This document shows positions 31,409-56,074 of a DNA stretch of 64,000 bases, piece after piece. Below the pieces are notes generated by a model, which did no database searches, was not told the DNA's origin, and saw nothing but the letters and a program-made list of their open reading frames with translations. Numbering within the stretch: position 1 is the stretch's first letter; each line of letters opens with the position of its first letter. This DNA comes from Mytilus trossulus (taxonomy: Eukaryota): the NCBI RefSeq assembly GCF_036588685.1, contig NC_086376.1, forward strand, positions 90,995,630 to 91,059,629, in the 5' to 3' direction. Position numbers and translations under genes: made by a program.

Positions 31409-31474
31409 TAAATTATATAAACAAACGACAGCTACTGTACACAGTTATCAAAGGTACCAGGATTATAATTTAGT

Positions 31475-31518
31475 ACGCCGGACGCGCGTTTCGCCTACAT
31501 AAGACTCATCAGTGACGC
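31475..31518 (-). ncRNA. Minimal type I hammerhead ribozyme (family 1B), intact core, GUC
   Basis: gcgtca-CTGATGA-gtct tatgt aggc-GAAA-cgcgcg-TC-cggcgt; one mismatch at the first pair of stem I. Confidence 0.8.
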
Positions 31519-32074
31519 TCATATCAAAATATTTATAAAGCCAAACAAGTACAATGAAGAGCATTGAGGATCCAAAAATTCCAAAAAGTTGTCCCAAATA
31601 CGGCTAAGGTACATCAGATTCCTGACTTAGAACAGGTGCAAACATTTGCAAAACTTTATCTGTTGTATCCTACATTGCAAATTCGATGTGTTCAGCACAG
31701 TCACCAAACATTGAATTATTTATTGAGAAGGGAAAAAACAAAGAGTCGGAACACCTGACACTAATTCCTTAAATCTGACCTAACACATCCTTTAAATGTC
31801 TACTTTACCATTTTTTTTTATTTGAACATACTGTTGCGTTAATTCATTGACAAACAATTTTTAAGGAATGAAAAGTTCACTTAAAGTTTGTAATAGATAA
31901 AAGCTCTTTGAAATGTTAGAAATGACGATTTCCAATGTAATATTAATGTCATTTTAGCACTTAATTTATATTTCATTAAAAACAAATCTAATCAATAAAC
32001 CATATATATTGAGAAAACTTGTTTTATTCAAAGAAATAAAATGTTATCAATTCGATATTCAAAACAGGCGAGAC

Positions 32075-32855
32075 AATTAATATAGGATTAAACACATTTT
32101 TTCTAGAGGTTATTGATGTGTAAACCGGGGCGGTTAACTCACAAACTGAATAAAAGTCCGAAGGACTTTTATGTCAAGTTTGTGAGTTAGAGACCCGGTT
32201 TACACATCAATAACCTCTAGAAAAAATGTGTTTAATCCTTATAATTCTTCAGCCAAACATACGCGATTATTAATTTACATTATTACTTTGATGGCTACTA
32301 TATGTACCATCAGAAGCACAATGGCATGTCGTAACCAAGGAGTACGCCGCCATCTTGACTTTCTAAAAATTTAAATGTTCTATAAATGCAACAGATACTA
32401 AAATGAACTAGCACCTACCTCGAAAACTTCATTTTAATTAGATACTATCCGAATTTGAAGCGTACAAGTAACGAAATAATCTTCCGTCTGGAAGTTTTCA
32501 ATCGTATGACGCCGTGTTTTGCCATGACGTAAATTCGCCAAATTATTCGTGAAATTTCCCGGAATTTTATTCAAATTTTATTTTTATACATTTTCGAAGC
32601 TTAAGTGCATTTATTGTATTTCTTCTTTTTTTTTTAATTATATATGCATTAGAATAGAAACAACTGTTATGCAATTGTTTTATAATCTCAACTTGCTGAA
32701 GATCCCAGTATCCCTACAAGAATGTGTATCGCGCATGAATAGCTTACAAAAGTAGTTTCGGAAACATGGTTTATCGAAGTGTAAACCAAGAGAAAAATTC
32801 TACTTGACCAATGCAATTCAAGTATTTATAGATATGCAAATGATATAAGAATTAT
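32075..32855 (+). mobile_element. Non-autonomous element with 156-bp 5' hairpin (unclassified)
   Basis: Perfect 46-bp arms 32084-32129 and 32194-32239, plus inner stems closing on a cGAAg loop. A partial arm copy lies at ~32768-32787. Terminal aagaattat (32847-32855) is complementary to ataattctt (32241-32249). Confidence 0.7.
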
Positions 32856-33999
32856 CTCCGTTTAAATACCTGACCGGCGAGAAGATTGACTCAACGGTAG
32901 TTAACCCGAGTACAATAAAAAAAAAAAGTAACACTAAACTCATTTAAAGAATGCGTTATGGAACATTTTACTAGAAAGAGATTATCTTAGTTGTATTTGT
33001 CAAAACTATTTGGTAATTTGTGTCTTCAACTTTATGCTGCTTTAAAACATTTCCTATTCAATCGTCACTACAAAATTATTTACGCCTGGTATCATTGATA
33101 ATATCGATTAGCCTGCTCCACAAATATCTAGGCAGTCTGTTTAAATCTAAAAAAAACAGGAATTTGATTAAGCAACGAATCTTAATATATCACCACAAGC
33201 ATCAAATCATATTATCACAGTTACACTGCAACTTCGTCAGTCCACATTAAACAATATGGCTACCATTGCAAAGATCCCGCACGAAAATAAGGAAAACCTA
33301 TATGGTTCCAAATGATAAATAGTAGGGCAAAGACTCGTGTGAAAAATGCAAGTCATATATTTGTATAATGCTGAAATAATCGTTTTTAAATATATGCCCA
33401 TTATAGAAATCAAATTTCTTAAGGTGTGAAGTAAAATTCTGAATCATAAAACAATAATAAAATAAGTACAATTTTGTAACAGCTGCTCATGCCTTTATTG
33501 TAACCAACACTAAAGCATTGTGAACAACAATATATTATATAACAACCGTTGCTTATTAATTTTGACAATCCTACTTTTTGTTTTTTCCCATTGTTAAGGT
33601 GTATTTTTTTCCCATTTTCTATAAATGTATTCTTAATATCAATTCATTAATATATAGTTTCATCCAATCAGGGTAAAGAAACGTAATTGTGTAAAAATGG
33701 TTTTAGATATTTTTCAGTTTATTTAATTTTTGTTCAAAATTAAACAAAATTTAAACATCTTGCAAAATTTACAACTTTATATGCACCTTTCATTATCTAA
33801 CATATTAATGACTTACTTGATATTGAAGCAATACAACTTGAGTTACTTCCTTTACATTATATAATTTTTATACAATCCGACAAATGTAGATTTTTCTAAA
33901 CGCTTATAATTGCAGACAATCGTCACCTGTTTTGTCACTCTAGGATAAAAAGGCAAAGAAGTACATATAAAGTTTTTATATGAAGTATCTTTAAGAAAA

Positions 34000-36900
34000 T
34001 CAAGTGGTGAATTTGAATCATCCTTTTGTAAATATTACGAACGCCATTATTAGTTGGTTGATCGGTATAGAATATCCGTTCCAATGATGACAGTATATGT
34101 TCCTATTGTCGTAACTACAACCACATTCTCTTTTCCAAGAATGTGACTTAACGAACTAGACTTATCACCGGGTTTGAACTTATATGATCAACACAAACTA
34201 TGTTACATGTGGAGCAGGAACTACTTACCTTTTTAAAGCACCTAAGATCACTCAAGCTTTTGGAGGTATCGTGTTGCTCAGTCTTTCCTTTTCTATGTTG
34301 TGTTTTACCTTTCTGGAGCACCTGAAACCACTCAAGCTTTGGAAGGTATCGTGTTGCTCAGCCTATCCTTTTCTGTGTTGTGTTTTACCTTTCTGGAGCA
34401 CCTGAAACCACTCAAGCTTTGGAAGGTATCGTGTTGCTCAGCCTATCCTTTTCTGTGTTGTGTTTTACCTTTCTGGAGCACCTGAAACCACTCAAGCTTT
34501 GGAAGGTATCGTGTTGCTCAGCCTATCCTTTTCTGTGTTGTGTTTTACCTTACTGGAGCACCTGAGATCACCCAAGCTTTGGGAGGTATCGTGTTGCTCA
34601 GTCTTTCCTTTTCTATGTTGTGTTTTACCTTTCTGGAGCACCTGAGACCACTCAAGCTTTGGAAGGTATCGTGTTGCTCAGTCTTTCCTTTTCTATGTTG
34701 TGTTTTACCTTTCTGGAGCACCTGATATCACCCAAGCTTTGGAAGGTATCGTGTTGCTCAGTCTTTCCTTTTCTATGTTGTGTTTTACCTTTCTGGAGCA
34801 CCTGAAACCACTCAAGCTTTTGGAGGTATCGTGTTGCTCAGTCTTTTCTTTTCTATGTTGTGTTTTACCTTTCTGGAGCACCTGAAACCACGCAAGCTTT
34901 TGGAGGTATCGTGTTGCTCAGTCTTTCCTTTTCTATGTTGTGTTTTACCTTTCTGGAGCACCTGAAACCACTCAAGCTTTTGGAGGTATCGTGTTGCTCA
35001 GTCTTTCCTTTTCTATGTTATGTTTTACCTTTCTGGAGCACCTGAAACCACTCAAGCTTTGGGAGGTATAGTGTTGCTCAGTCTTTCCTTTTCTATGTTG
35101 TGTTTTACCTTACTGGAGCACCTGAGATCACCCTAGCTTTGGGAGGTATCGTGTTGCTCAGTCTATCCTTTTCTATGTTGTGTTTTACCTTACTGGAGCA
35201 CCTGAGATCACCCTTGCTTTGGGAGGTATCGTGTTGCTCAGTCTATCCTTTTCTATGTCGTGTTTTACCTTACTGGAGCACCTGAGATCACCCTAGCTTT
35301 GGAAGGTATCGTGTTGCTCAGTCTTTCCTTTTCTATGTTGTGTTTTACCTTACTGGAGCACCTGAGATCACCCTAGCTTTGGGAGGTATCGTGTTGCTCA
35401 GTCTATCCTTTTCTATGTTGTGTTTTACCTTTCTGGAGCACCTGAGATCACCCTAGCTTTGGGAGGTATCGTGTTGCTCAGTCTATCCTTTTCTATGTCG
35501 TGTTTTACCTTACTGGAGCACCTGAGATCACCCTAGCTTTGGAAGGTATCGTGTTGCTCAGTCTTTCCTTTTCTATGTTGTGTTTTACCTTACTGGAGCA
35601 CCTGAGATCACCCTAGCTTTGGGAGGTATCGTGTTGCTCAGTCTATCCTTTTCTATGTTGTGTTTTACCTTACTGGAGCACCTGAGATCACCCTAGCTTT
35701 GGGAGGTATCGTGTTGCTCAGTCTATCCTTTTCTATGTTGTGTTTTACCTTACTGGAGCACCTGAGATCACCCTAGCTTTGGAAGGTATCGTGTTGCTCA
35801 GTCTTTCCTTTTCTATGTTGTGTTTTACCTTACTGGAGCACCTGAGATCACCCTAGCTTTGGGAGGTATCGTGTTGCTCAGTCTATCCTTTTCTATGTTG
35901 TGTTTTACCTTTCTGGAGCACCTGAAACCACTCAAGCTTTTGGAGGTATCGTGTTGCTCAGTCTTTCCTTTTCTTTGTTGTGTTTTACCTTTCTGGAGCA
36001 CCTGAGACCACTCAAGCTTTGGAAGGTATCGTGTTGCTCAGTCTTTCCTTTTCTATGTTGTGTTTTACCTTTCTGGAGCACCTGAAACCACTCAAGCTTT
36101 GGAAGGTATCGTGTTGCTCAGTCTTTCCTTTTCTATGTTGTATTTTACCTTACTGGAGCACCTGAGATCACCCAAGCTTTGGGAGGTATCGTGTTGCTCA
36201 GTCTTTCCTTTTCTATGTTGTGTTTTACCTTTCTGGAGCACCTGAGACCACTCAAGCTTTTGGAGGTATCGTGTTGCTCAGTCTTTCCTTTTCTATGTTG
36301 TATTTTACCTTTCTTGAGCACCTAAAACTACTCAAGCTTTTGGAGGTATCGTGTTGCTCAGTCTTTCCTTTTCTATGTTGTGTTTTACCTTTCTGGAGCA
36401 CCTGAGATCACCCTAGCTTTGGAAGGTATCGTGTTGCTCAGTCTTTCCTTTTCTATGTTGTGTTTTACCTTTCTGGAGCACCTGAGACCACCCAAGCTTT
36501 GGAAGGTATCGTGTTGCTCAGTCTTTCCTTTTCTATGTTGTGTTTTACCTTACTGGAGCACCTGAGATCACCCAAGCTTTGGAAGGTATCGTGTTGCTCA
36601 GTCTTTCCTTTTCTATGTTGTGTTTTACCTTTCTGGAGCACCTGAGACCACTCAAGCTTTTGGAGGTATCGTGTTGCTCAGTCTTTCCTTTTCTATGTTG
36701 TATTTTACCTTTCTGGAGCACCTGAAACCACTCAAGCTTTTGGAGGTATCGTGTTTCTCAGTCTTTCCTTTTCTATGTTGTATTTTACCTTTCTGGAGCA
36801 CCTGAGATCACCCTAGCTTTGGAAGGTATCGTGTTGCTCAGTCTTTCCTTTTCTATGTTGTGTTTTACCTTTCTGGAGCACCTGAGACCACCCAAGCTTT

Positions 36901-39900
36901 GGAAGGTATCGTGTTGCTCAGCCTATCCTTTTCTGTGTTGTGTTTTACCTTTCTGGAGCACCTGAAACCACTCAAGCTTTGGAAGGTATCGTGTTGCTCA
37001 GCCTATCCTTTTCTGTGTGTGTTTTACCTTTCTGGAGCACCTGAAACCACTCAAGCTTTGGAAGGTATCGTGTTGCTCAGCCTATCCTTTTCTGTGTTGT
37101 GTTTCACCTTTCTGGAGCACCTGAGATCACCCAAGCTTTGGAAGGTATCGTGTTGCTCAGTCTTTCCTTTTCTATGTTGTGTTTTACCTTTCTGGAGCAC
37201 CTGAAACCACTCAAGCTTTTGGAGGTATCGTGTTGCTCAGTCTTTCCTTTTCTTTGTTGTGTTTTACCTTTCTGGAGCACCTGAGACCACTAAAGCTTTG
37301 GAAGGTATCGTGTTGCTCAGTCTTTCCTTTTCTATGTTGTGTTTTACCTTTCTGGAGCACCTGAGATCACCCAAGCTTTGGAAGGTATCGTGTTGCTCAG
37401 TCTTTCCTTTTCTATGTTGTGTTTTACCTTTCTGGAGCACCTGAAACCACTCAAGCTTTTGGAGGTATCGTGTTGCTCAGTCTTTTCTTTTCTATGTTGT
37501 GTTTTACCTTTCTGGAGCACCTGAAACCACGCAAGCTTTTGGAGGTATCGTGTTGCTCAGTCTTTCCTTTTCTATGTTATGTTCTACCTTTCTGGAGCAC
37601 CTGAAACCACTCAAGCTTTGGGAGGTATAGTGTTGCTCAGTCTTTCCTTTTCTATGTTGTGTTTTACCTTACTGGAGCACCTGAGATCACCCTAGCTTTG
37701 GGAGGTATCGTGTTGCTCAGTCTATCCTTTTCTATGTTGTGTTTTACCTTACTGGAGCACCTGAGATCACCCTTGCTTTGGGAGGTATCGTGTTGCTCAG
37801 TCTATCCTTTTCTATGTCGTGTTTTACCTTACTGGAGCACCTGAGATCACCCTAGCTTTGGAAGGTATCGTGTTGCTCAGTCTTTCCTTTTCTATGTTGT
37901 GTTTTACCTTACTGGAGCACCTGAGATCACCCTAGCTTTGGGAGGTATCGTGTTGCTCAGTCTATCCTTTTCTATGTTGTGTTTTACCTTTCTGGAGCAC
38001 CTGAGACCACTCAAGCTTTGGGAGGTATCGTGTTGCTAAGTTTTTCCTTTTCTATGTTGAGTATTACCTTTCTGGAGCACCTGAGACCACTCAAGCTTTG
38101 GGAGGTATCGTGTTGCTCAGTCTTTCCTTTTCTATGTTGTGTTTTACCTTACTGGAGCACCTGAGATCACCCTAGCTTTGGGAGGTATCGTGTTGCTCAG
38201 TCTATCCTTTTCTATGTTGTGTTTTACCTTACTGGAGCACCTGAGATCACCCTAGCTTTGGGAGGTATCGTGTTGCTCAGTCTATCCTTTTCTATGTTGT
38301 GTTTTACCTTACTGGAGCACCTGAGATCACCCTAGCTTTGGAAGGTATCGTGTTGCTCAGTCTTTCCTTTTCTATGTTGTGTTTTACCTTACTGGAGCAC
38401 CTGAGATCACCCTAGCTTTGGGAGGTATCGTGTTGCTCAGTCTATCCTTTTCTATGTTGTGTTTTACCTTTCTGGAGCACCTGAGACCACTCAAGCTTTG
38501 GGAGGTATCGTGTTGCTCAGTCTTTCCTTTTCTATGTTGAGTTTTACCTTTCTGGAGCACCTGAGACCACTCAAGCTTTGGGAGGTATCGTGTTGCTCAG
38601 TCTTTCCTTTTCTATGTTGTGTTTTACCTTACTGGAGCACCTGAAACCACTCAAGCTTTGGAAGGTATCGTGTTGCTCAGTCTTTCCTTTTCTATGTTGT
38701 GTTTTACCTTTCTGGAGCACCTGAGATCACTCAAGCTTTGGAAGGTATCGTGTTGCTCAGTCTTTCCTTTTCTATGTTTATGTTTTACCTTTCTGGAGCA
38801 CCTGAGACCATTCAAGCTTTGGGAGGTATCGTGTTGCTCAGTCTTTCCTTTTCTATGTTGTGTTTTACCTTACTGGAGCACCTGAAACCACTCAAGCTTT
38901 GGAAGGTATCGTGTTGCTCAGTCTTTCCTTTTCTATGTTGTGTTTTACCTTTCTGGAGCACCTGAGATCACCCTAGCTTTGGAAGGTATCGTGTTGCTCA
39001 GTCTTTCCTTTTCTATGTTGTGTTTTACCTTTCTGGAGCACCTGAGATCACTCTAGCTTTGGAAGGTATCGTATTGCTCAGTCTTTCCTTTTCTATGTTG
39101 TGTTTTACCTTTCTGGAGCACCTGAAACCACTCAAGCTTTGGAAGGTATCGTGTTGCTCAGTCTTTCCTTTTCTGTGTTGTGTTTTACCTTTCTGGAGCA
39201 CCTGAGATCACCCAAGCTTTGGAAGGTATCGTGTTGCTCAGTCTTTCCTTTTCTATGTTGTGTTTCACCTTTCTGGAGCACCTGAGACCACTCAAGCTTT
39301 TGGAGGTATCGTGTTGCTCAGTCTTTCCTTTTCTATGTTGTGTTTTACCTTACTGGAGCACCTGAGACCACTCAAGCTTTGGAAGGTATCGTGTTGCTCA
39401 GCCTATCCTTTTCTATGTTGTGTTTTACCTTTCTGGAGCACCTGAAACCACTCAAGCTTTGGAAGGTATCGTGTTGCTCAGTCTTTCCTTTTCTATGTTG
39501 TGTTTTACCTTTTTGGAGCACCTGAGATCACCCTAGCTTTGGGAGGTATCGTGTTGCTCAGTCTTTCCTTTTCTATGTTGTGTTTTACCTTTCTGGAGCA
39601 CCTGAAACCACTCAAGCTTTGGAAGGTATCGTGTTGCTCAGTCTTTCCTTTTCTATGTTGTGTTTTACCTTTCTGGAGCACCTGAGATCACTCAAGCGTT
39701 GGGAGGTATCGTGTTGCTCAGTCTTTCCTTTTCTATGTTGTGTTTTACCTTTCTGGAGCACCTGAGATCACCCTAGCTTTGGGAGGTATCGTGTTGCTCA
39801 GTCTTTCCTTTTCTATGTTGTGTTTTACCTTTCTGGAGCACCTGAGATCACTCAAGCTTTGGAAGGTATCGTGTTGCTCAGTCTTTCCTTTTCTATGTTG

Positions 39901-40810
39901 TGTTTTACCTTTCTGGAGCACCTGAGATCACTCAAGCTTTGGAAGGTATCGTGTTGCTCAGTCTTTCCTTTTCTATGTTGTGTTTTACCTTTCTGGAGCA
40001 CCTGAGATCACTCAAGCTTTGAAAGGTATCGTGTTGCTCAGTCTTTCCTTTTCTATGTTGTGTTTTACCTTTCTGGAGCACCTGAGACCACTCAAGCTTT
40101 GGAAGGTATCGTGTTGCTCAGTCTTTCCTTTTCTATGTTGTGTTTTACCTTTCTGGAGCACCTGAGACCACCCAAGCTTTGGAAGGTATCGTGTTGCTCA
40201 GTCTTTCCTTTTCTATGTTGTGTTTTACCTTTCTGGAGCACCTGAGATCACCCAAGCTTTGGAAGGTATCGTGTTGCTCAGTCTTTCCTTTTCTATGTTG
40301 TGTTTTACCTTACTGGAGCACCTGAGATCACCCAAGCTTTGGAAGGTATCGTGTTGCTCAGTCTTTCCTTTTCTATGTTGTGTTTTACCTTTCTGGAGCA
40401 CCTGAGGTCACTCAAGCTTTGGAAGGTATCGTGTTGCTCAGTCTTTCCTTTTCTATGTTGTGTTTTACCTTTCTGGAGCACCTGAGATCACCCAAGCTTT
40501 GGAAGGTATCGTGTTGCTCAGTCTTTCCTTTTCTTTGTTGTGTTTTACCTTTCTGGAGCACCTGAAACCTCTCAAGCTTTGGAAGGTATCGTGTTGCTCA
40601 GTCTTTCCTTTTCTATGTTGTGTTTTACCTTTCTGGAGTACCTGAAACCACTCAAGCTCTGGAAGGTATCGTGTTGCTCAGTCTATCCTTTTCTATGTTG
40701 TGTTTTATGCACTGTTGTTGTCTGTTGATATTTTCTTTTTTTAACCATTATCCGTTCATTTTCGACTTATGAGTTTGAAATTCCTTTTGTATCTTTTATG
40801 TGTCTTTTTT
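34000..40810 (+). mobile_element. Family A Penelope-like 3' fragment hosting the 80-bp array
   Basis: 34000-34300 and 40700-40810 join into one continuous copy matching the reverse complement of 58110-58450 and the terminus seen at 10865-11038. Confidence 0.85.
34225..40707. repeat. 80-bp tandem satellite, about 81 copies
   Basis: Unit ttacctttctggagcacctgagatcacccaagctttggaaggtatcgtgttgctcagtctttccttttctatgttgtgtt. There is a 1-bp deletion near 37018 and a 1-bp insertion near 38779. It produces the serial 61-aa ORFs. Confidence 0.98.
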
Positions 40811-41145
40811 TTTTAACCATTACAAGTAAATAAAGAATTTGAAAGTGAGGTTGTATGTCTTCATGTACACTATGTTATTTACACAGAAACAAATGCAAAA
40901 AAAACCGATTGCATTACAATATCTTGTAATATGTTGAACAGTTTTGAAAATGCATACTGTATATATATATGTAATAAAAAATACAGATAAACGACCGACA
41001 ATGGTGGTATAAAGTCACATTACAACTCCTTTTATCTCAATTTGAATTCCATTACTTTTATCTTAATGTGACAGATATCTTCATTCATAGTGACCCATCT
41101 TTATTTATATAATCGTTATGAAAGGTACAAGGATTATAATTTAAT

Positions 41146-41188
41146 ACGCCAGACGTGCGTTAGTCTACATAAGACTCATCAGTGACGC
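41146..41188 (-). ncRNA. Degenerate hammerhead (family 1B; GAAA lost) in element ~41115-41300
   Basis: gcgtcaCTGATGAgtcttatgtagacTAAcgcacgTCtggcgt. Confidence 0.7.
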
Positions 41189-41578
41189 TCAGATCAAAAC
41201 AGTTAAAAAGCCAAACAAATACAAAGTTGAAGAGCATTAAGAACCCAAAATTCCAAAAAGTTGTGCAAAATACGGCTAAGGTATTCTACTCCTGGGGGTA
41301 ACATCTTCTCTGCATTGTCAGCTATGTTTAACTCTGTCAGCGATGAAGTGCCAATTATGTTTGCATTAACCATGTTTGTTTTATTGGTATGCTTGATATG
41401 GATTTCGGAAACTTTTCTTAACCAGTCGACAATTCAATCCTCTTAGTAATGTTAAAAATCAAAGTATGTTTTCTATAGTTTCATAAAGTTATGTCACTTT
41501 AATTGAATTTCATTAATATATTTCACGATTTGTTCGCCTTCTAATTAGTTATCAAAGGTACCAGGATTTTAATTTAGT

Positions 41579-41622
41579 ACGCCAGACGCGCGTTACGTCT
41601 ACATAAGACTCATCAGTGACGC
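41579..41622 (-). ncRNA. Degenerate hammerhead (family 1B; GAAA to GTAA) in element ~41547-41685
   Basis: gcgtcaCTGATGAgtcttatgtagacGTAAcgcgcgTCtggcgt. Confidence 0.75.
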
Positions 41623-41844
41623 TCATATCAAAATATTTATAAAGCCAAACAAATACATAATTGAAGAGCATTGAGGATCCTAAAACCGTTCCGGAACCTC
41701 AGTTTCTTTCGATGGCCTGAAAGGCTCTTTTATAACTAACTGTTGCAAATGATCACATATTAATTGTGCTTTTCATTACAGAACTTTCTTGGTATTCCTA
41801 ATTATTGAAAGACTTTTATACACATAAGTATATTTTGGCTACGA

Positions 41845-41888
41845 GCATAACTGAAGAGACATGTATTGTCGAAATGCGCATCTGGTGC
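41845..41888 (+). ncRNA. Minimal type I hammerhead ribozyme, family 2 (AUC triplet)
   Basis: gcataa-CTGAAGA-gaca tgtat tgtc-GAAA-tgcgca-TC-tggtgc: full core, stem II gaca/tgtc, palindromic stem III atgcgcat, stem I with one mismatch. Confidence 0.8.
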
Positions 41889-42099
41889 AGGAAAATTGGT
41901 TCGTTAATGATAGTATACCTAAAACGACAAAATTATTTTTCATCTACCTGTATATATTATTAAAACCGTTTTTTTTTAAAGTTATTTTTTCGAAGGGTTT
42001 TATATTTCGCAGTGGTGTCTTACCATGGCTTTGTTTGGACTTTTTTGTTTGATTTTTGGTCTCAAATGTTTGTCCGTAATATTTACTTTTTTAACTGTG

Positions 42100-42562
42100 C
42101 ATTTGCATTCAGATATCGCAGATCAAATTTATTCGTTCATATTGTGTTAATTTACGTTTTCTGATTGAGTTAAGCCTGCCAATTTATATGTTATCGTGTT
42201 TCTTTCTATGTTGTGATGTTATGCTCTGAAGGTTTGGTACCATTAAAACGTCTAATCCCGCAGCAAATGATTGCACCCGTCCTAAGTCAGTCAGGAATCT
42301 GATGTATAGTAGTTGTCGTTTGTTTATGTAATTTATACGTGTTTCTCGTTTTTTCGTTTTTTATATAGATAAGACCGTTGGTTTTCCCGTTTGAATGGTT
42401 TAACACTAGTAATGTTGGGGCCCTTTATAGCTTGTGGTTCGGTGTAGGCAAAGACTCCGTATTGAAGGCTGTAAATTTACCAATAATGGTTTACTTTTTA
42501 GAAATTGTTATTTGGGTGAAGAGTTGTCTCATTGGCACTCACACCACATCTTCCTATATCTA
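42100..42562 (+). mobile_element. Family C dispersed repeat (probable retroelement 3' end)
   Basis: Paralogue of 30975-31650; ends ccacatcttcctatatctat. Confidence 0.75.
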
Positions 42563-42605
42563 TTTTCATTTATATTCAATAGAAATATTAAATTACACTT
42601 ACTAT

Positions 42606-42756: not shown

Positions 42757-43254
42757 CTAATGTCTGCGATTAAAACATGAGGTGCAAAATCGGTGATTTA
42801 ACGTGTTTAAACGTTGAAAATCTGTATCGATACATTGATATCATTTCGTCTACATTATAGCGAAGAAACTTCACGTTCCGTAATATAGCGTTACTGATGT
42901 AAACACGTTCTCCACAGCCCCGACGGCAAGGGATTTCCTCAAAATTAGTTTCCATATGATGTACAAGCTTTTCAGGTTTGTAACTTGTTTATCTTATCAA
43001 GTTTTACCAATTGTTTTTTTACATTTTGTTAACGTGTGGGCTCTAGTGCTGTCTATACCGTACCCGAGTAATCTGCTTCCGTTACCCGGAAGCTTGCACC
43101 ATTGAAGGTATTGGAGGGCGAGCTGATGAGCAGGGCTCAGTGACAAAACAATTTGAAACAGTGAAGACTTTATTCGAATTTTAGACGAATTTGACACGAA
43201 GATTAAAGCGCTGTTTATTTTACTTACTTTTATACTGATGCAGTCCTTTTTAAA

Positions 43255-43480
43255 AGTAAAATAAAAAATAACGAACTTCCGAGGAAAATTCACAAAGGAA
43301 AGTCTGTATTCAAATGGCAAAATCAAAAGCTCAAACACATCAAACGAATGGATAACAAATGTAATATTCCTGACCTGGAACAGGCCTTTGTAGAAAATGG
43401 TGGATTTACATGTTTTTTTTATATCTAGCTAAACCTCTCACTTATATGACAGTCGCATTTATTTCCATTACATTGACAAC
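43255..43480 (-). mobile_element. Family B 3'-terminal fragment
   Basis: Reverse complement of 26270-26488. Confidence 0.8.
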
Positions 43481-44394: not shown

Positions 44395-44955
44395 TAGTAA
44401 AGGTGTAATAGTCTGGTTGAAAAACAGATTAAACCCAATTACATTATAGGTCATAACTGACGAATGTTAAGGCCTAAAAACAGTTCCTTTTATAGTTTTG
44501 AAATATTGAATTACAATGCTTTATTACTGAAGGCCAAAAAAAAAGGGTTAAAATTGGTGCAATCAAAACAATTGGTAAAGGTGTGATTGTTTGGTGGAAA
44601 ATAAAAATAAAAGTGAAACAGAAACAGAAATACAATATCGGCCATGATTGACGAATGTTAAGGCCTATAAACAGTTTCATTGATAATTTTATATTTAAAA
44701 AAAACCAGTTTGTTAACAATGGAAATCATAACACATCTCTTACTTAACACCTATTGTTTTTCATTTGACACGTTCAAGTAAGTGGTACAGATATAAACCT
44801 TTCAAATAGGCGCTATCAAACAAGTCTGCAAAGGTGTAATAATATGGTTGAAAATGAAAAGAAGTCTGGTTTATAATGAAAAGAAAGGTTAGACCAAAAT
44901 ATATTATAGGTCGTGATTGACGAATTTTAAGGCCTGAAAACAGTTCCATTCATAA
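44395..44955. repeat. Degenerate tandem repeat, about 3 units of 180-280 bp
   Basis: aaggtgt.at...tggt.gaaa...tgacgaat.ttaaggcct..aaacagtt recurs at ~44400-44487, ~44578-44678 and ~44831-44948. Confidence 0.7.
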
Positions 44956-45042
44956 TGTTATAGTTTGAACATATTCGGAATTTTGGATTCTCAATGCTCT
45001 TCAACTGTGTACTTGTTTGGCTATCTAAATATTTTGATATGA

Positions 45043-45086
45043 TCGGCACTGATGAGTCTTATGTAGACGAAACGCGCGTCTGGCGT
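45043..45086 (+). ncRNA. Hammerhead (family 1B), intact core, weakened stem I, in element ~44975-45119
   Basis: tcggca-CTGATGA-gtcttatgtagac-GAAA-cgcgcg-TC-tggcgt. Confidence 0.8.
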
Positions 45087-47529
45087 ACTCAATTATAATC
45101 CTGGTACCTTTAATAACTATTGTATACTGTGAAAGAAATGGATTGAAACCAAAAAAACTATACATATGAAGTACGCTCCGAATTACAGTATATAGCAATA
45201 CAATGCTAATATGAACATGCAATATTCCGCCTATGGGAAAGACAACACTAGGCATTTGATTCCCGGCTTGGTATGATAATGACATAATATATTAGCCAAC
45301 AAGCACCACCAAACTCTCATTTATAGTCCGAGAACAAATCAAAACTGAGGACGATGAACGATGAAAGAAAGAAAAAAGTTTCCTAAATGCTGTAAGCCCT
45401 TAAAAGTTGTAGGAACATAGTAATAGGGTTTTAAAAATAGAGTTGACATATTTTAATGATTAGGACGTTTGACGACAAGTGTTACATATTACAGGATTAT
45501 CTGGATTTTACCATGTCAAGGTGCAATGTGCAATGAACATGGAAACGAATTTTGTTATAAGCCTAATACCTAGCATGTCGTTATGTTCTAGTGTATTGTT
45601 TATTTGTATATTTCTCTGTTCTGAATGTTCTTTCATTTATTATAATCCTAACATGTAAGAATGTTATATTTAACATTGCCATAAAAGCGAGAAGTTAGGC
45701 TAGCAAATTCAGATTCTTTTTATGAAAATGAACTGTACCATGTCAGGAAAATGACATTGTTATCTTAGCTTGTTTTTGTGTGTGTTGCATTGTCGTTTGT
45801 TTTTGTTGCACTTTAGTGTTTCTGTTGTTTCGTTGTTTTCCTCTTTTATTTGATGTGTTCCCCTCGGTTTTAGTTTGTAACCCGGATTTATTTTCTTTCT
45901 ATCGATTTATGACTTTCGAACAGCGGTATATTACTGTTGACTTTATTAAGGTTGAACAGCGGTATACTACTGTTGACTTTATTTATGCTGTATACTAACA
46001 ATTGCAAGCCAAGCCGAATGTTACGTGTATGTTGACAAGGAAACAGTCCATGTGACGACATGACACTTGCCCGGCAAATTATTGTAATTCAGAATAGACA
46101 TGCACTCTATCCGCATTGTGCATGACTACCAGAGAAGCAGCAAATAGCCATTTGATATTTTAGGTGTGTCACCGATATAGCCGGGTAAAATGGCGTTCCG
46201 GCTAAATGTAAATCAAGAAGGAAGATTTCGCTCCTTAAACTTTTATTTTAGCAGTCCGGAAAAACCGAACAACAAACTCAAAACTAAATGTAATGTAACA
46301 TACAAACAATAACAATATATATAAGCACAAGGAATTACAGGATTAAGCAGATTAACAGATGACAAATTAGAAATAACAATAGATTAAAAGAGTAATTAGT
46401 GTCCGACACGTATTTGTAAACCATAGTCCAAACTGTCACAGAGAATAAATAATGAAATAAATAGAGTAAATGCATTCAAGGCCTAAATTTACGACAAAGT
46501 CTAGATAAATGCAAAACCTAAATATACATTAAATCAATTGAATAACTAAAATGTTGTTTAAAAACTAATTTTATTGCACAGTCTAAATAGTCCGGTCATA
46601 CCACCCCGGATCGGTTAAACAAGACCCTGAACATACGAGTTACATGATTGCATTAGCCGACTTTATATACAAATGTGTGTGGCCAAGTGTACGTTATTTG
46701 CATGTTTATTTTTCGAACTTTGTTTAAAAAATTGAAAATAAGACATTTGGTGCATTATATTTTCAGATGTCCAAACAATAAAAAATGGTGTAACAGTTCC
46801 ATACAATGTTTGAACAATTTGACGAACATGATTTGTTTTATTTTTCGCGACCAAGCCCGCATCCTTTTGCTAAAACATGATCGCATAATGACCAGCACTT
46901 TTCCCGTTTAATAATATACAATTTAAATGAGGCGCTTAATAGATTATTCCATCAACTCACTTTCAAAACATTTTCAGAAAACTAGCACCAACTTTAATTG
47001 TCCATGATGGTCGAACCGTCGAGCGGTTTCATAAAAGAAAAAAAAATAAAAGAAAATATAAAGACTTTATAAGCAAATTAAATCAGAGCAACAACTTCTA
47101 CGAGTGAGGAAGAATGTCCGCAATTATTAGTCGTATGTTTATTAAATGTCTTAACCGATTCATTTTCTACAGACCAAATTAAGTGACTGATCGCAGACTC
47201 TTTATTGTTGACGTTCTGAAATCTGCATCGTAGCCATTACTATTATTTTTACGCGAAGGCTCTGCAATATTTTCAAGGAAATGTTTTTTTTTTTGAAGAC
47301 ATATAAACGTTTTATTCCTAAATATTTCCTGTGTACAATTACCTTAGTCGTCCAGGATCAGGCTAAGGGTCCCTGTTTACAAAAATAAACCATCTATCCA
47401 GGGGATAATTATAATTATAGGGTACCCACATAAAAGATGTGTATAATTATAGGGTACCCACATAAAAGATGTGCATCAAGGAAATGTTTAAAATATTCTA
47501 GATTAATACAAATTTGTAGCAATAGATCA

Positions 47530-50500
47530 CTTACCACTTGAAATCCTTGGCCAATATATCCCTGATAATCAACAACCGTGCATCAAAAAGGTCATGATAG
47601 GAAACACAATTCTGGAACTGCGAATCAACTTGGTAATAATTTCTCAGTTGGAGCTGCTGCTGTAATTTTGCTACATAGAAATTGTCATGATATGAGACAC
47701 AATTACCTGTATATGTTGTATCCTTAATTTCGAAGGGAACGAGTATACGTCAATCATTGACACCAAACCTTTGAAAAGTTGTCATCTATATATGGAACGT
47801 CAGGTTCTAGGATGATGCTAACATTAGTTAGTTCTTCCTTTGAAGCTACATCTATATATGGAACGTCAGGTTCTAGGATGATGCTAACATTAGTTAGTTC
47901 TTCCTTTGAAGCTACATCTATATATGGAACGTCAGGTTCTAGGATGATGCTAACATTAGTTAGTTCTTCCTTTGAAGCTACATCTATATATGGAACGTCA
48001 GGTTCTAGGATGATGCTAACATTAGTTAGTTCTTCCTTTGAAGCTACATCTATATATGGAACGTCAGGTTCTAGGATGATGCTAACATTAGTTAGTTCTT
48101 CCTTTGAAGCTACATCTATATATGGAACGTCAGGTTCTAGGATGATGCTAACATTAGTTAGTTCTTCCTTTGAAGCTACATCTATATATGGAACGTCAGG
48201 TTCTAGGATGATGCTAACATTAGTTAGTTCTTCCTTTGAAGCTACATCTATATATGGAACGTCAGGTTCTAGGATGATGCTAACATTAGTTAGTTCTTCC
48301 TTTGAAGCTACATCTATATATGGAACGTCAGGTTCTAGGATGATGCTAACATTAGTTAGTTCTTCCTTTGAAGCTACATCTATATATGGAACGTCAGGTT
48401 CTAGGATGATGCTAACATTAGTTAGTTCTTCCTTTGAAGCTACATCTATATATGGAACGTCAGGTTCTAGGATGATGCTAACATTAGTTAGTTCTTCCTT
48501 TGAAGCTACATCTATATATGGAACGTCAGGTTCTAGGATGATGCTAACATTAGTTAGTTCTTCCTTTGAAGCTACATCTATATATGGAACGTCAGGTTCT
48601 AGGATGATGCTAACATTAGTTAGTTCTTCCTTTGAAGCTACATCTATATATGGAACGTCAGGTTCTAGGATGATGCTAACATTAGTTAGTTCTTCCTTTG
48701 AAGCTACATCTATATATGGAACGTCAGGTTCTAGCATGATGCTAACATTAGTTAGTTCTTCCTTTGAAGCTACATCTATATATGGAACGTCAGGTTCTAG
48801 CATGATGCTAACATTAGTTAGTTCTTCCTTTGAAGCTACATCTATATATGGAACGTCAGGTTCTAGCATGATGCTAACATTAGTTAGTTCTTCCTTTGAA
48901 GCTACATCTATATATGGAACGTCAGGTTCTAGGATGATGCTAACATTAGTTAGTTCTTCCTTTGAAGCTACATCTATATATGGAACGTCAGGTTCTAGGA
49001 TGATGCTAACATTAGTTAGTTCTTCCTTTGAAGCTACATCTATATATGGAACGTCAGGTTCTAGGATGATGCTAACATTAGTTAGTTCTTCCTTTGAAGC
49101 TACATCTATATATGGAACGTCAGGTTCTAGGATGATGCTAACATTAGTTAGTTCTTCCTTTGAAGCTACATCTATATATGGAACGTCAGGTTCTAGGATG
49201 ATGCTAACATTAGTTAGTTCTTCCTTTGAAGCTACATCTATATATGGAACGTCAGGTTCTAGGATGATGATAACATTAGTTAGTTCTTCCTTTGAAGCTA
49301 CATCTATATATGGAACGTCAGGTTCTAGGATGATGCTAACATTAGTTAGTTCTTCCTTTGAAGCTACATCTATATATGGAACGTCAGGTTCTAGGATGAT
49401 GCTAACATTAGTTAGTTCTTCCTTTGAAGCTACATCTATATATGGAACGTCAGGTTCTAGGATGATGCTAACATTAGTTAGTTCTTCCTTTGAAGCTACA
49501 TCTATATATGGAACGTCAGGTTCTAGGATGATGCTAACATTAGTTAGTTCTTCCTTTGAAGCTACATCTATATATGGAACGTCAGGTTCTAGGATGATGC
49601 TAACATTAGTTAGTTCTTCCTTTGAAGCTACATCTATATATGGAACGTCAGGTTCTAGGATGATGCTAACATTAGTTAGTTCTTCCTTTGAAGCTACATC
49701 TATATATGGAACGTCAGGTTCTAAGATGATGCTAACATTAGTTAGTTCTTCCTTTGAAGCTACATCTATATATGGAACGTCAGGTTCTAGGATGATGCTA
49801 ACATTAGTTAGTTCTTCCTTTGAAGCTACATCTATATATGGAACGTCAGGTTCTAGGATGATGCTAACATTAGTTAGTTCTTCCTTTGAAGCTACATCTA
49901 TATATGGAACGTCAGGTTCTAGGATGATGCTAACATTAGTTAGTTCTTCCTTTGAAGCTACATCTATATATGGAACGTCAGGTTCTAGGATGATGCTAAC
50001 ATTAGTTAGTTCTTCCTTTGAAGCTACATCTATATATGGAACGTCAGGTTCTAGGATGATGCTAACATTAGTTAGTTCTTCCTTTGAAGCTACATCTATA
50101 TATGGAACGTCAGGTTCTAGGATGATGCTAACATTAGTTAGTTCTTCCTTTGAAGCTACATCTATATATGGAACGTCAGGTTCTAGGATGATGCTAACAT
50201 TAGTTAGTTCTTCCTTTGAAGCTACATCTATATATGGAACGTCAGGTTCTAGGATGATGCTAACATTAGTTAGTTCTTCCTTTGAAGCTACATCTATATA
50301 TGGAACGTCAGGTTCTAGGATGATGCTAACATTAGTTAGTTCTTCCTTTGAAGCTACATCTATATATGGAACGTCAGGTTCTAGGATGATGCTAACATTA
50401 GTTAGTTCTTCCTTTGAAGCTACATCTATATATGGAACGTCAGGTTCTAGGATGATGCTAACATTAGTTAGTTCTTCCTTTGAAGCTACATCTATATATG

Positions 50501-53500
50501 GAACGTCAGGTTCTAGCATGATGCTAACATTAGTTAGTTCTTCCTTTGAAGCTACATCTATATATGGAACGTCAGGTTCTAGCATGATGCTAACATTAGT
50601 TAGTTCTTCCTTTGAAGCTACATCTATATATGGAACGTCAGGTTCTAGCATGATGCTAACATTAGTTAGTTCTTCCTTTGAAGCTACATCTATATATGGA
50701 ACGTCAGGTTCTAGCATGATGCTAACATTAGTTAGTTCTTCCTTTGAAGCTACATCTATATATGGAACGTCAGGTTCTAGGATGATGCTAACATTAGTTA
50801 GTTCTTCCTTTGAAGCTACATCTATATATGGAACGTCAGGTTCTAGGATGATGCTAACATTAGTTAGTTCTTCCTTTGAAGCTACATCTATATATGGAAC
50901 GTCAGGTTCTAGGATGATGCTAACATTAGTTAGTTCTTCCTTTGAAGCTACATCTATATATGGAACGTCAGGTTCTAGGATGATGCTAACATTAGTTAGT
51001 TCTTCCTTTGAAGCTACATCTATATATGGAACGTCAGGTTCTAGGATGATGCTAACATTAGTTAGTTCTTCCTTTGAAGCTACATCTATATATGGAACGT
51101 CAGGTTCTAGGATGATGCTAACATTAGTTAGTTCTTCCTTTGAAGCTACATCTATATATGGAACGTCAGGTTCTAGGATGATGCTAACATTAGTTAGTTC
51201 TTCCTTTGAAGCTACATCTATATATGGAACGTCAGGTTCTAGGATGATGCTAACATTAGTTAGTTCTTCCTTTGAAGCTACATCTATATATGGAACGTCA
51301 GGTTCTAGGATGATGCTAACATTAGTTAGTTCTTCCTTTGAAGCTACATCTATATATGGAACGTCAGGTTCTAGGATGATGCTAACATTAGTTAGTTCTT
51401 CCTTTGAAGCTACATCTATATATGGAACGTCAGGTTCTAGGATGATGCTAACATTAGTTAGTTCTTCCTTTGAAGCTACATCTATATATGGAACGTCAGG
51501 TTCTAGGATGATGCTAACATTAGTTAGTTCTTCCTTTGAAGCTACATCTATATATGGAACGTCAGGTTCTAGGATGATGCTAACATTAGTTAGTTCTTCC
51601 TTTGAAGCTACATCTATATATGGAACGTCAGGTTCTAGGATGATGCTAACATTAGTTAGTTCTTCCTTTGAAGCTACATCTATATATGGAACGTCAGGTT
51701 CTAGGATGATGCTAACATTAGTTAGTTCTTCCTTTGAAGCTACATCTATATATGGAACGTCAGGTTCTAGGATGATGCTAACATTAGTTAGTTCTTCCTT
51801 TGAAGCTACATCTATATATGGAACGTCAGGTTCTAGGATGATGCTAACATTAGTTAGTTCTTCCTTTGAAGCTACATCTATATATGGAACGTCAGGTTCT
51901 AGGATGATGCTAACATTAGTTAGTTCTTCCTTTGAAGCTACATCTATATATGGAACGTCAGGTTCTAGGATGATGCTAACATTAGTTAGTTCTTCCTTTG
52001 AAGCTACATCTATATATGGAACGTCAGGTTCTAGGATGATGCTAACATTAGTTAGTTCTTCCTTTGAAGCTACATCTATATATGGAACGTCAGGTTCTAG
52101 GATGATGCTAACATTAGTTAGTTCTTCCTTTGAAGCTACATCTATATATGGAACGTCAGGTTCTAGCATGATGCTAACATTAGTTAGTTCTTCCTTTGAA
52201 GCTACATCTATATATGGAACGTCAGGTTCTAGCATGATGCTAACATTAGTTAGTTCTTCCTTTGAAGCTACATCTATATATGGAACGTCAGGTTCTAGCA
52301 TGATGCTAACATTAGTTAGTTCTTCCTTTGAAGCTACATCTATATATGGAACGTCAGGTTCTAGCATGATGCTAACATTAGTTAGTTCTTCCTTTGAAGC
52401 TACATCTATATATGGAACGTCAGGTTCTAGCATGATGCTAACATTAGTTAGTTCTTCCTTTGAAGCTACATCTATATATGGAACGTCAGGTTCTAGGATG
52501 ATGCTAACATTAGTTAGTTCTTCCTTTGAAGCTACATCTATATATGGAACGTCAGGTTCTAGGATGATGCTAACATTAGTTAGTTCTTCCTTTGAAGCTA
52601 CATCTATATATGGAACGTCAGGTTCTAGGATGATGCTAACATTAGTTAGTTCTTCCTTTGAAGCTACATCTATATATGGAACGTCAGGTTCTAGGATGAT
52701 GCTAACATTAGTTAGTTCTTCCTTTGAAGCTACATCTATATATGGAACGTCAGGTTCTAGGATGATGCTAACATTAGTTAGTTCTTCCTTTGAAGCTACA
52801 TCTATATATGGAACGTCAGGTTCTAGGATGATGCTAACATTAGTTAGTTCTTCCTTTGAAGCTACATCTATATATGGAACGTCAGGTTCTAGGATGATGC
52901 TAACATTAGTTAGTTCTTCCTTTGAAGCTACATCTATATATGGAACGTCAGGTTCTAGGATGATGCTAACATTAGTTAGTTCTTCCTTTGAAGCTACATC
53001 TATATATGGAACGTCAGGTTCTAGGATGATGCTAACATTAGTTAGTTCTTCCTTTGAAGCTACATCTATATATGGAACGTCAGGTTCTAGGATGATGCTA
53101 ACATTAGTTAGTTCTTCCTTTGAAGCTACATCTATATATGGAACGTCAGGTTCTAGGATGATGCTAACATTAGTTAGTTCTTCCTTTGAAGCTACATCTA
53201 TATATGGAACGTCAGGTTCTAGGATGATGCTAACATTAGTTAGTTCTTCCTTTGAAGCTACATCTATATATGGAACGTCAGGTTCTAGGATGATGCTAAC
53301 ATTAGTTAGTTCTTCCTTTGAAGCTACATCTATATATGGAACGTCAGGTTCTAGGATGATGCTAACATTAGTTAGTTCTTCCTTTGAAGCTACATCTATA
53401 TATGGAACGTCAGGTTCTAGGATGATGCTAACATTAGTTAGTTCTTCCTTTGAAGCTACATCTATATATGGAACGTCAGGTTCTAGGATGATGCTAACAT

Positions 53501-53600
53501 TAGTTAGTTCTTCCTTTGAAGCTATTGTAACATGTCCGCCTAGTATGAATAAAGAAACAATTCGAAATTAAGAAAACAAAACCAGTCGTATACCATAGAA
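47530..53600 (-). pseudogene. Old Naiad-type RT relic split by the 66-bp array
   Basis: The minus strand entering the array reads LFLYSY*ADMLQ*LQRKN*LMLASS*NLTF then YIDD after a 1-nt shift. After the array come FEIKDTTYT, FYVAKLQQ-like decay of the F.CSNIP segment, and CVSYHDLFD. Motif order equals 24388-24840 and 58440-58560. Confidence 0.8.
47783..53524. repeat. 66-bp tandem satellite, 87 near-identical copies
   Basis: Unit catctatatatggaacgtcaggttctaggatgatgctaacattagttagttcttcctttgaagcta; the 5742-bp span equals 87 x 66. Confidence 0.99.
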
Positions 53601-54998
53601 TAAACGATTTCTTGTATTAACCACTTCTTGTTTATCACCTTGAACACTAGACAGAATAAATAAAAAATATGTCCTGCAACATTTTGACACAAACAGTTTC
53701 AAATCTACCTAAATTTGTTATCACATTGTTTAAATTTTCAGATGAGCTTTACAAGTGCCCTGAACCTTTAGTATCGATTGCAGTTCATCAATTATTTTTT
53801 TTATAAAACAAAAGACTCAGCAAGACAATACCGAAAACTATAAGACTACTACTATTTGGTACTTAGTAGTTATTATCAAATAGTCCGTTTCTATTTATGT
53901 TTGTTTTTCTTACTCTTCAGATGTTTCCGTTGTTTTCCACTTATAGTTGATTTGTATCACTAGGTTTTAGTTTTTTACCCGGATATTTTTAGACAATATT
54001 TTGTTTTCTGATTACTAAATAAGTTGACTATATATTAATGTATACTATATATCAGGTTATGCTTGCATCTCACCATAATCGTGGTTTGTGCCTTAAAAGG
54101 GATATCTAACTCTGTTTCATGTTGCGTTTAATGGCGTTGACAATGCATAATAATTGGCGGAACAAAAAAAAACAACTAAGACTCTGAAACTAATAAGATT
54201 CACAAATGAAGGAAAGATCAATTAAGGCAGTAACTAACCGACTGGTAAGTTAAATGGGGTCTAAGATATAGAATTGCTTCAGCCAACCATGGCACATAAA
54301 CTTGTTTGATGGTTTACGTTATAATATATTTTAACTGTATGTGAATGAATAGGAATGATGATGTTGCATGTTTAAAAATAAGTTTTTAACCCACAAGTTA
54401 TGCTCTCAATCATCAGGGGACTAAGTGCATACGTTTTTATCTGGTTTTTCAATATACAAATGTTTGGTGTATTGCCGAACCGATCAATTTGGGTACAGAT
54501 CTTACAATGATAAACCTTTATTTCAAATTGAAAAAATAAGACTTAATGGTCCGTCTGAAATCAATATTCTGGAATTACCTTCATCAAACTAAAACGTATG
54601 AAAGCATGGGAATTACAAAATGTTGACCGAAATTACAGAAGTTTATTGCAAACCACTTCAATTGGAATACATTTTATATAAACTATGTTATAGAGTCAGT
54701 TGATAATGTACCAGAAGCTGCACGATATCCAAATCGAAAATATAAAAAAAAGAGCAATAGGGTATCGAAGGAGTTTCTTAACAACAAAACATTAGACTTG
54801 TTATTATTGAATTGATATGCTAAGAAATTTTCCACAATTTTACGAAATAATACAATACAAAATAGAAAGTTTTTAAAATAAACTTGTTAGACTGAAATTC
54901 CTCCAGTAAAGAAAATGCCATACAAAATAGAAAAGTATCATTATGAACTGGTTTGTCAGAACAACCATCTGATTTAAAAGAGACTTTTTTGGATTCGA

Positions 54999-55042
54999 GC
55001 GTCACTGATGAGTTTTTTGTAGACGAAACGCGCGTCTGGCGT
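54999..55042 (+). ncRNA. Minimal type I hammerhead ribozyme (family 1A), intact, GUC
   Basis: gcgtca-CTGATGA-gttt tttgt agac-GAAA-cgcgcg-TC-tggcgt. Confidence 0.87.
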
Positions 55043-55997
55043 ATATATAAAATTTATTCCTGGTTTCTATGGTGAGTTTATTTACATACGTCCTATTCTT
55101 AATTTCTCATGTTACAATAGATAAAGTAACTATTACGTCAAGGTTACGGAGTGTTTTATCTCATCATTAAGGAGACATTCACTTATCAGATATAGATCTT
55201 GTTTATTATATAGGTGAATGTTCCACACCTGAGTTCACCACACATTTTGTGAGGGATTCGTGTTCCTGAGTCTAGTTTTCTATGTTGTGTTTTGTTTACT
55301 TTGATCTTTTCCTGTCTCATCAATTTAGTTGTCCGTTTGTTTTCGACTAAGGAGTTTGAACTTACTCAGGTATCTTTCAGCTCTCTTCTAAGAATCTTAT
55401 ACAAATAGGAGTCTTTTTGTATTGTTTTCCTGGTCGTTAATTATTATATACAATCCACCCTTAATAGAAATTTATAAAATAAATGCATTCGTAATATTTT
55501 CCCAATACGTAACAATTTATAACAATACAACAATACATATGGGACGTATGTCTACGAAATAGTGGATGGAAACTGGTTTCAAAACTAGCTTAATCACTTT
55601 CTTAATCACTTTCACTTGTATAACAGTCAAATTCCCTTATATTGTCAACGATGCGTGAACGAAACGAACAGACATATTATGAACAAATGTCAAAGATAGG
55701 GGTACAGCAGTCAACATTGTGTTATAATCTTAATTACCATAAAGAAATAACAAATATGTTACAAAGAAGCAAAACAATGGCAAATAGACCAAGCATATTC
55801 GCAAAGATTAAAGATAAATTTACCATAGAACAATAACACAATGATGGGAAGTACAGAGACATGTAATATATGAATATTGAGTGCCGGGTGTCTTTTCAGT
55901 TTTTTTTTACATCTTTGACCATACTTTGATTCACTTTTTGTAAAAGTGGCCTTTTATGTATAATTAGTTATCAAAGGTACCAGGATTATAATTTAGT

Positions 55998-56041
55998 ACG
56001 CCAGACGCGCGTTTCGTCTACATAAGACTCATCAGTGACGC
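55998..56041 (-). ncRNA. Minimal type I hammerhead ribozyme (family 1B), consensus copy, GUC
   Basis: gcgtca-CTGATGA-gtct tatgt agac-GAAA-cgcgcg-TC-tggcgt. Confidence 0.9.
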
Positions 56042-56074
56042 TCATATCGAAAAAGTTATAAACCAAACAACCCC

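Follow-up and report, generated by a model that had tools for sequence, protein, structure and literature searches.

Mussel retrozymes share a stem-loop and its adjoining end site with Naiad Penelope-like elements, their probable helpers

The non-long-terminal-repeat (non-LTR) retrozymes of the mussel Mytilus galloprovincialis are described as two families of 350–390-bp repeats with type I hammerhead ribozymes, which self-cleave slowly (kobs ~0.1 per min for one repeat) and give rise to abundant circular RNA (Cervera and de la Pena 2020, PMC7229834). That work proposed Penelope-like elements (PLEs) as helpers and circular RNA (circRNA) as the template of the reverse transcriptase (RT), and PLE helpers have likewise been proposed for the retrozymes of Xenopus (Li, Clavereau, Pollet 2026, bioRxiv 10.64898/2026.07.22.740005); a 2020 review finds in animal retrozymes no conserved motif from which the helper could be recognised (PMC7761336). 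Among PLEs, Poseidon_Ac initiates copying in vitro at an internal site downstream of its hammerhead, independently of hammerhead cleavage (Frangieh et al. 2024, PMC11167929). Here we describe hammerhead-bearing elements in a 64,000-nt stretch of the Mytilus trossulus genome (assembly GCF_036588685.1, contig NC_086376.1, positions 90,995,630–91,059,629, forward strand; hereafter the window, whose own numbering is used below), for which relatives were searched in 14 large contigs totalling 1.30 Gb.

Judged by their sequence, the hammerhead elements of the window are 5'-truncated fragments of tandem retrozyme units of 351–366 nt that fall into three families, named A (previously 1A), B (previously 1B) and C. 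In genome searches, the tandem unit measures 366 nt in family A, 358 nt in B, and 351 nt in C, and arrays range from 2 to more than 50 units. The Rfam type I hammerhead model RF00163 matches all nine units of the family B array L026 (33 bits, E 8.5e-5; gathering score 34), and family C carries a hammerhead core by pattern with no Rfam match at E ≤ 1. These elements belong to a known family: by description, they fit the M. galloprovincialis retrozymes in ribozyme type, in their tandem repeats of ~350–390 bp, and in being expressed. The published account describes no fixed insertion end, stem-loop, or named helper and has two families, whereas we find three, which share a motif with Naiad PLEs.

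The original prediction held that the elements end at a fixed point 35–50 nt past the ribozyme cleavage site. In 120 evenly spaced 10-kb stretches of the genome (1.2 Mb) aligned to natural arrays, retrozymes make up ~1.4% of the DNA and gave 99 BLAST fragments, of which one edge fragment was dropped. Of the remaining 98, 62 end no more than 6 nt from the anchor of their family, against ~3.6% expected if ends were uniform, with the qualification that the anchors were set after part of the sample had been seen and that some insertions are represented by more than one fragment. The pile-up of ends that had been proposed as a genome-wide check is thus seen in this sample, and the ends are not randomly distributed. 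Anchoring is found in 32/40 fragments at identities of at least 85% and 21/24 at 90% or above, and by family in 27/44 (A), 29/42 (B), and 6/12 (C). Anchored fragments have a median length of 134 bp, with 7/62 exceeding 350 bp, and 5' ends in the sample are spread over the whole unit, with each of its 18 20-nt bins represented, which bears out the variable 5' ends noted earlier. A fixed 3' end combined with variable 5' truncation is the insertion signature of PLEs, and it is present in these retrozymes. Multimers, too, mostly terminate at the anchor (automatic scoring placed 25 of 36 there, among them the C1 15-mer and 16-mer), a count biased by the retrieval of most array loci through likeness to window copies; of the 11 misses, four lie beyond the scored slice, two are artefacts of flank in the reference, and five are real.

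The fixed end stood up, but its constant distance from the cut did not: the anchor lies at +47 in family A, +42 in B, and +33 in C, and a ruler measured from the ribozyme cut was rejected. In all three families, the end falls within a short T-run, 5–6 nt ahead of a shared stem-loop. Because the spacing from cut to end differs by family while that from the end to the first paired arm of the stem-loop (P1) is constant, the stem-loop, and not the ribozyme cut, appears to set the end. Anchored ends at a constant offset from the stem-loop support the specific internal start site postulated in the original prediction.

The predicted stem-loop spans 58–59 nt in families A, B, and C and is bulged, with P1 formed by ACTGGGT/GCCCAGT, a second helix P2, and a core of CTGCTGGTGGA...TCCCCGAG. 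Structure prediction gives it a stable fold (z −3.5 to −4.5 versus mononucleotide shuffles), which also forms in the predicted circular fold of all three units when the anchor is mapped on the circRNA as had been suggested. The exact core pattern has 13,430 matches in the genome and its reversed control none. Over 16 natural sequences (retrozymes from this genome and from metagenome contigs, and four Naiads) and a 22-pair structure, 94.3% of cells are paired and 7/22 pairs have changes on both sides, values reached by 0/500 shuffles; slid controls are 36–51% paired. Rfam gave no match on the stem-loop at E ≤ 1 in loci L241, L026, and L080, save a weak one to NEAT1_2 (23.6 bits, gathering score 60) over the T-rich junction, and viral contigs yielded 0 matches to the motif.

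Outside the retrozymes, the motif is found in Naiads, a PLE clade described by Craig et al. 2021 (PMC8557442). In the supplement of that paper, CTGCTGGTGGA has 11 exact matches, each opening a Naiad consensus (54 are listed); these consensi come from bivalves, hemichordates, and one fish, and in one the string follows a short pseudo-long-terminal repeat (pLTR). The Chlamys and Hydra files of the supplement lack it. The arms of published Naiads differ in sequence but can still be paired by eye, as in ACCGAAC/GTTCGGT and ACCAGGT/ACCTGGT. A scan of metagenomes for the core, in which 80 of at least 120 matches were examined, left 16 AT-rich matches after 64 GC-rich ones were set aside as likely chance; four of the 16 are Naiad junctions or starts and the rest are retrozyme-like. 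In a search of public sequencing runs, no listed holder of the motif is recorded as RNA. Distant Naiad-like relics (L041, L084, L102, L177) have no recognisable motif and appear 5'-truncated.

A Pfam search for GIY-YIG endonucleases followed by alignment to retrozymes identified a family, Naiad-1, with the stem-loop match ~450 nt upstream of the endonuclease. At locus L241, Naiad-1 has an intact 1056-amino acid (aa) open reading frame (ORF), counted stop to stop, in a 4276-bp tandem unit. The GIY-YIG domain (PF01541) occupies residues 183–273, N-terminal to the RT, for which Pfam RVT_1 gave no match. The unit opens with the stem-loop directly after the unit junction, with a P1 of ACCAAGT/ACTTGGT and an extra hairpin inserted, and copies end at TTTT|ACTACA followed by P1. 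Of the 63 sampled fragments whose ends lie in the final 300 nt or farther on, 39 terminate no more than 6 nt from the junction and a single one finishes past +6; in three public runs, the depth of reads and contigs drops from >100 to ~1 at the same base. Past the T-run, copies of Naiad-1, family A, and family B have similar end profiles (an A in 51–60% of terminal copies, then a C in 26–49%), in sets that include loci retrieved by likeness. The extra hairpin of Naiad-1 (L241:4978–5002 region) has a counterpart at the same stem-loop position in the hemichordate Naiad-1_Skow (PMC8557442 supplement); in both, the insertion makes a three-way junction.

A second family, Naiad-2, was found via the metagenome core scan and has at least 40 genome copies at 99–100% identity, in tandems of 3290–3370 bp. 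Its ORF is probably open for ~1000 codons, as judged from coordinates over two overlapping loci, and its translation places GIY-YIG before the RT by eye. It is distinct from Naiad-1 (46% at the aa level over 233 residues in L317). Naiad-2 matches families A, B, and C at 83–87% over the 69–71-nt stem-loop (E ≤ 2e-14) and has no other similarity to them. Its copies end at TTTT|ATTACC followed by P1 in 45/80 cases, rising to 26/37 at a minimum identity of 85%, where the ends lie in the 12 nt ahead of P1, and 15/20 at a minimum of 90% (13-nt window). The translations of both families read PADKA, with DKA in place of DKG. Together with the N-terminal GIY-YIG, partial tandems, 5' truncation, and lack of a canonical hammerhead, this matches Naiads as characterised by Craig et al. 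(PMC8557442), and the Naiad-1 start matches Naiad_Mgal and Naiad_Mcor in the supplement by eye. As the original prediction had assumed, no canonical hammerhead was detected in these Naiads (no Rfam hammerhead match in L241, no core pattern in L411 and L412). The main text of PMC8557442 contains neither 'stem-loop' nor 'hairpin', and it names non-autonomous partners for Chlamys. Naiad protein matches occur in 22 of the 120 genome samples.

Most retrozyme copies thus end 5–6 nt before a stem-loop that retrozymes have in common with Naiads, and therefore the Naiad RT likely copies retrozymes from that site. We regard this mobilisation in trans as probable, and it accords with the earlier suggestion of Naiads as helpers, now backed by the shared stem-loop and the same end offset. 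The stem-loop of Naiad-2 is nearly the same as that of the retrozymes, which makes this family the most probable origin of the motif and a likely main helper. In the mechanism we propose, the Naiad RT would bind the retrozyme stem-loop in trans and begin target-primed copying just 5' of it; the GIY-YIG domain would nick the DNA, whose 3' end would prime in the U-run at the foot of P1. The enzyme would then travel back 33–47 nt and pass the hammerhead junction on a template that would be a religated circle or an uncut tandem transcript, usually dropping off early (hence a median of 134 bp) and sometimes copying more than one unit. Short insertions would lack the stem-loop because it lies 3' of the start.

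It is improbable, in our estimate, that the stem-loop was acquired from a Naiad long ago and now plays another role, as promoter element, in RNA stability, or in binding a host protein, while a different RT inserts the retrozymes. The Naiad-2-like sequence does point to descent, and the motif lies at the 5' end of Naiads, a position that in Penelope-like elements holds the promoter (PMC8557442). Such an RT, however, would have to match the 5–6-nt offset and the ragged end profile of Naiads; moreover, the youngest copies are the most tightly anchored (21/24), and the spacing from anchor to stem is kept in families whose spacing from cut to anchor differs.

We return to copying by the Naiad RT and its template. 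A cleaved monomer primed at +42 would yield only 42-nt copies from the cut, and no peak of 5' starts is seen there, so copying appears to cross the junction, as originally predicted. Genome-wide, family B copies start 42 times at +1, 29 at +5, and 86 at −3 in a test confined to three positions of this one family; a rough correction for chance flank matches changes the counts to ~107, ~74, and ~173, and some of the −3 copies are local duplicates. In the sample, 6/40 copies with at least 85% identity began within 6 nt of the cut, which resembled a peak, but a cleaved linear template was rejected on the genome-wide counts. In the stranded RNA run X24, 6304 of 8.7 million reads fall on the B unit, with sense exceeding antisense by ~4–5:1 over the part present only in long copies, assuming the usual library orientation. 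Reads are undiminished across the cut, 499 pass over the main unit-boundary joint, and molecule ends do not pile up. Of the predicted circular or multimeric template, continuity across the junction was thus supported. We lean towards a circle over a tandem transcript; published results for mussel point to circles as the predominant RNA form (PMC7229834), while Poseidon_Ac used unprocessed RNA in vitro (PMC11167929). Units within short arrays seldom differ at family-wide polymorphic sites (3/123 for B and 12/248 for A, versus 11% and 14% between loci), which fits one source unit per insertion or a homogenised donor array.

Events at the DNA level do occur. The C14 array (6.05 Mb; L022, L023) contains its own terminal flank twice and has one period of 416 rather than 358; the doubled flank indicates that long arrays also grow as DNA, and some arrays hold variants common to subsets of units. 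That such events account for most copies, or that the Naiad RT helps but acts on a self-cleaved linear monomer, is nevertheless very unlikely, given that breakage would not yield one polarised end and that the family B starts (+1, +5, −3) form no peak at the cut.

Another source of a fixed end would be the pLTR of an autonomous, hammerhead-bearing PLE, whose own 5'-truncated insertions, made in cis and with no helper, the copies would then be. Such a relationship has precedents in the Xenopus retrozymes, which are related to pLTRs (bioRxiv 10.64898/2026.07.22.740005), and in hammerheads near the ends of canonical elements (PMC8557442). Copies longer than one unit, however, run upstream into further retrozyme units and not into an ORF; the unit is a shared terminus in 0/30 GIY-YIG loci, in 0/7 longer loci with C-terminal endonuclease (EN), and in neither of the two Naiad units, which resemble retrozymes at the stem-loop only. 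Among the autonomous elements examined, none therefore has the unit as its terminal repeat, contrary to the outcome that the original prediction had named as fatal to it, and we consider this origin highly improbable. Three families with C-terminal GIY-YIG lack the stem-loop motif, have other termini that mostly abut (TA)n, show no canonical hammerhead core near their ends by pattern, and gave no match of at least 50% identity in the 120 genome samples. These families (L181–L209, L253, L254; frames of 784, 901, and 911 aa) have fixed ends with optional extensions of ~30–40 bp in the 784- and 901-aa families and ~90 bp in the 911-aa family.

Several observations weigh against Naiad-driven copying from the stem-loop. 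The shared motif could reflect descent rather than present use, and the structural support is tempered by a structure drawn from the same sequences, by relatedness that inflates the shuffle test, and by core pairs that are invariant because the search pattern fixed the core. Off the anchor end 36/98 sampled fragments, mostly old or split pieces, and a second 'tail' end was not found, with only 2/98 retrozyme fragments finishing 20–50 nt past the anchor. No target-site duplication (TSD) signature ties retrozymes to Naiads: 1/41 anchored copies has 8 nt or more common to both flanks, compared with 2.3% in shuffles, so a TSD excess was not found. Naiad-1 RNA over the stem-loop reaches a depth of 1–5 in one raw RNA run. 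The short RNA reads on the B unit fit circles and uncut tandem transcripts equally. Finally, the comparison beyond Naiads is limited to three Penelope-like families, and an autonomous hammerhead-bearing element with the same end may exist outside them.

PLEs were already known to initiate at internal sites; what this work adds is a signal common to retrozymes and Naiads, which implicates the latter as helpers. The likeness to Poseidon_Ac lies in a Penelope-like RT that starts inside the RNA, past the hammerhead cut; there, RNA 3' of the start is required and ribozyme cleavage is not, and genomic ends match the start sites (PMC11167929). Poseidon_Ac is described as an autonomous C-terminal-EN element that works in cis from two start sites, which accounts for a 30–40-bp tail, whereas here the element is non-coding, has one start site, and would be served by a hammerhead-free, N-terminal-EN Naiad. 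Xenopus retrozymes likewise depend on and resemble PLEs, but the part they share is the hammerhead-bearing pLTR, with the mechanism left open in that preprint, and here it is the 5' stem-loop of a hammerhead-free clade. No paper connecting Naiads with retrozymes through a motif turned up in literature searches of sources other than subscription journals, the PMC7229834 supplement, and the supplement of the bioRxiv preprint.

If correct, our reading gives animal retrozymes a named candidate helper (two intact Naiad families), a named RNA signal of ~60 nt, and a predicted start base, all testable by the published in vitro assay for Poseidon_Ac. Internal initiation would no longer be confined to one C-terminal-EN element acting in cis but would include the N-terminal-EN Naiad clade, acting in trans. 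With a helper that lacks a hammerhead and an end that tracks the stem-loop, hammerhead and RT signal would be separable modules. As telomerase has Penelope-like RTs as its sister group (PMC8557442), an RNA helix that fixes where copying starts would be of wider interest. More tentatively, and as a possibility we rate somewhat below even, the ~60-nt stem-loop may be a portable loading and start signal for the Naiad RT, conserved from molluscs to hemichordates and fish; mussel retrozymes would then be viroid-like circles combining the signal with a hammerhead, and rolling-circle target-primed reverse transcription would write them into the genome, producing multimers in one pass. Were this true, any RNA circle bearing the signal could be copied by a Naiad enzyme.

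In the window itself, copies were located by local alignment to natural retrozyme arrays, a motif scan for the end sequence quoted in the original prediction, and an Rfam scan. The five family B copies carry that end motif, whose ends at 31443, 41114, 41547, 45118, and 55966 are at most 1 nt off the earlier figures, and their alignment to the natural array finishes +41 to +46 from the cut. They lie at 31436–31611 (− strand; 5'-truncated, type I hammerhead, 3' end at the anchor, 93% to array L026), 41111–41296 (−; truncated, damaged hammerhead core, end +41), 41542–41684 (−; end +43), 44974–45121 (+; end +41), and 55958–56070 (−; hammerhead 55998–56041, predicted cut 56004/56003), the last three all truncated. 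RF00163 matched five window copies with 25.9–33 bits, each slightly under the 34-bit gathering score.

The common end claimed for family A was likewise recovered, at 13121–13128, 18415, 55086, and 62183 (+45 to +55 from the cut), with a relic at ~2693. The corresponding truncated copies occupy 13121–13331 (−; alignment to +55, the foot of the stem-loop), 18415–18627 (−; end +47, inside a Naiad-2 fragment), 54983–55086 (+), and 62014–62183 (+). The decayed relic at 2568–2693 (+), identified by sequence comparison, ends at the anchor and adjoins a 45-bp satellite (2675–5682) that begins on the last ~19 nt of the relic, which makes the fixed end of the retrozyme part of the satellite unit. Alignment added two copies to the earlier list: a 49-bp family A piece at 11868–11916 (+) with the same end (+47), and a truncated family C copy at 41830–41909 (+; CUGAAGA core by pattern, 351-nt unit) that ends near the +33 anchor. 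Two older aligned pieces do not end at the anchor: one of family A at 30275–30435 (+) holds the only clearly recognisable stem-loop in the window (~30312–30371, degenerate), and the other, at 63132–63395 (−), comprises old decayed pieces at 73% identity. The ORF list of the window shows no ORF of at least 100 aa on its retrozyme copies.

Naiads have also left traces in the window. A broken Naiad-1 coding region with the start of its 3' untranslated region (UTR) lies at 22789–25130 (+; 84–93% aa identity to the 1056-aa ORF of L241), and by alignment a Naiad-1 3'-end fragment at 43252–43480 (−) stops at the junction before the stem-loop; further Naiad-1 ends are at 13897, 22057, 21963, 25853, and 28276. 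A Naiad-2 3' fragment was aligned at 58108–58579 (−), and Naiad-2 ends at the anchor offset occur at 11038, 27981, and 57336. An 80-bp satellite of 81 copies (34225–40707) derives from the Naiad-2 3' UTR, −197 to −117 from the stem-loop, at ~80% identity, and a longer Naiad-2 piece precedes it (34001–34303).

Elsewhere in the genome, the family C copy at L034:3185–3537 is almost exactly one unit long; it runs from the foot of the stem-loop to the anchor and is bounded on either side by a 13-bp duplication seen by eye. Retrozyme pieces also lie inverted beside another copy or on the 5' side of a Naiad (L012, L087, L184), resembling the inverted 5' copies described for PLEs. A fourth hammerhead repeat, with a 548-nt unit and a CUGAAGA core like that of family C, lacks the Naiad stem-loop (L256:1–1160 and 7400–8200; L061:1–568; L145:7340–7722); it is often close to (TA)n-targeting C-terminal-EN elements and a tRNA-like short interspersed element, and may use a different helper. 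The window further contains a 66-bp satellite (47783–53524) of 87 copies that are 99% alike, with ORFs of 1936–1937 codons on both strands.

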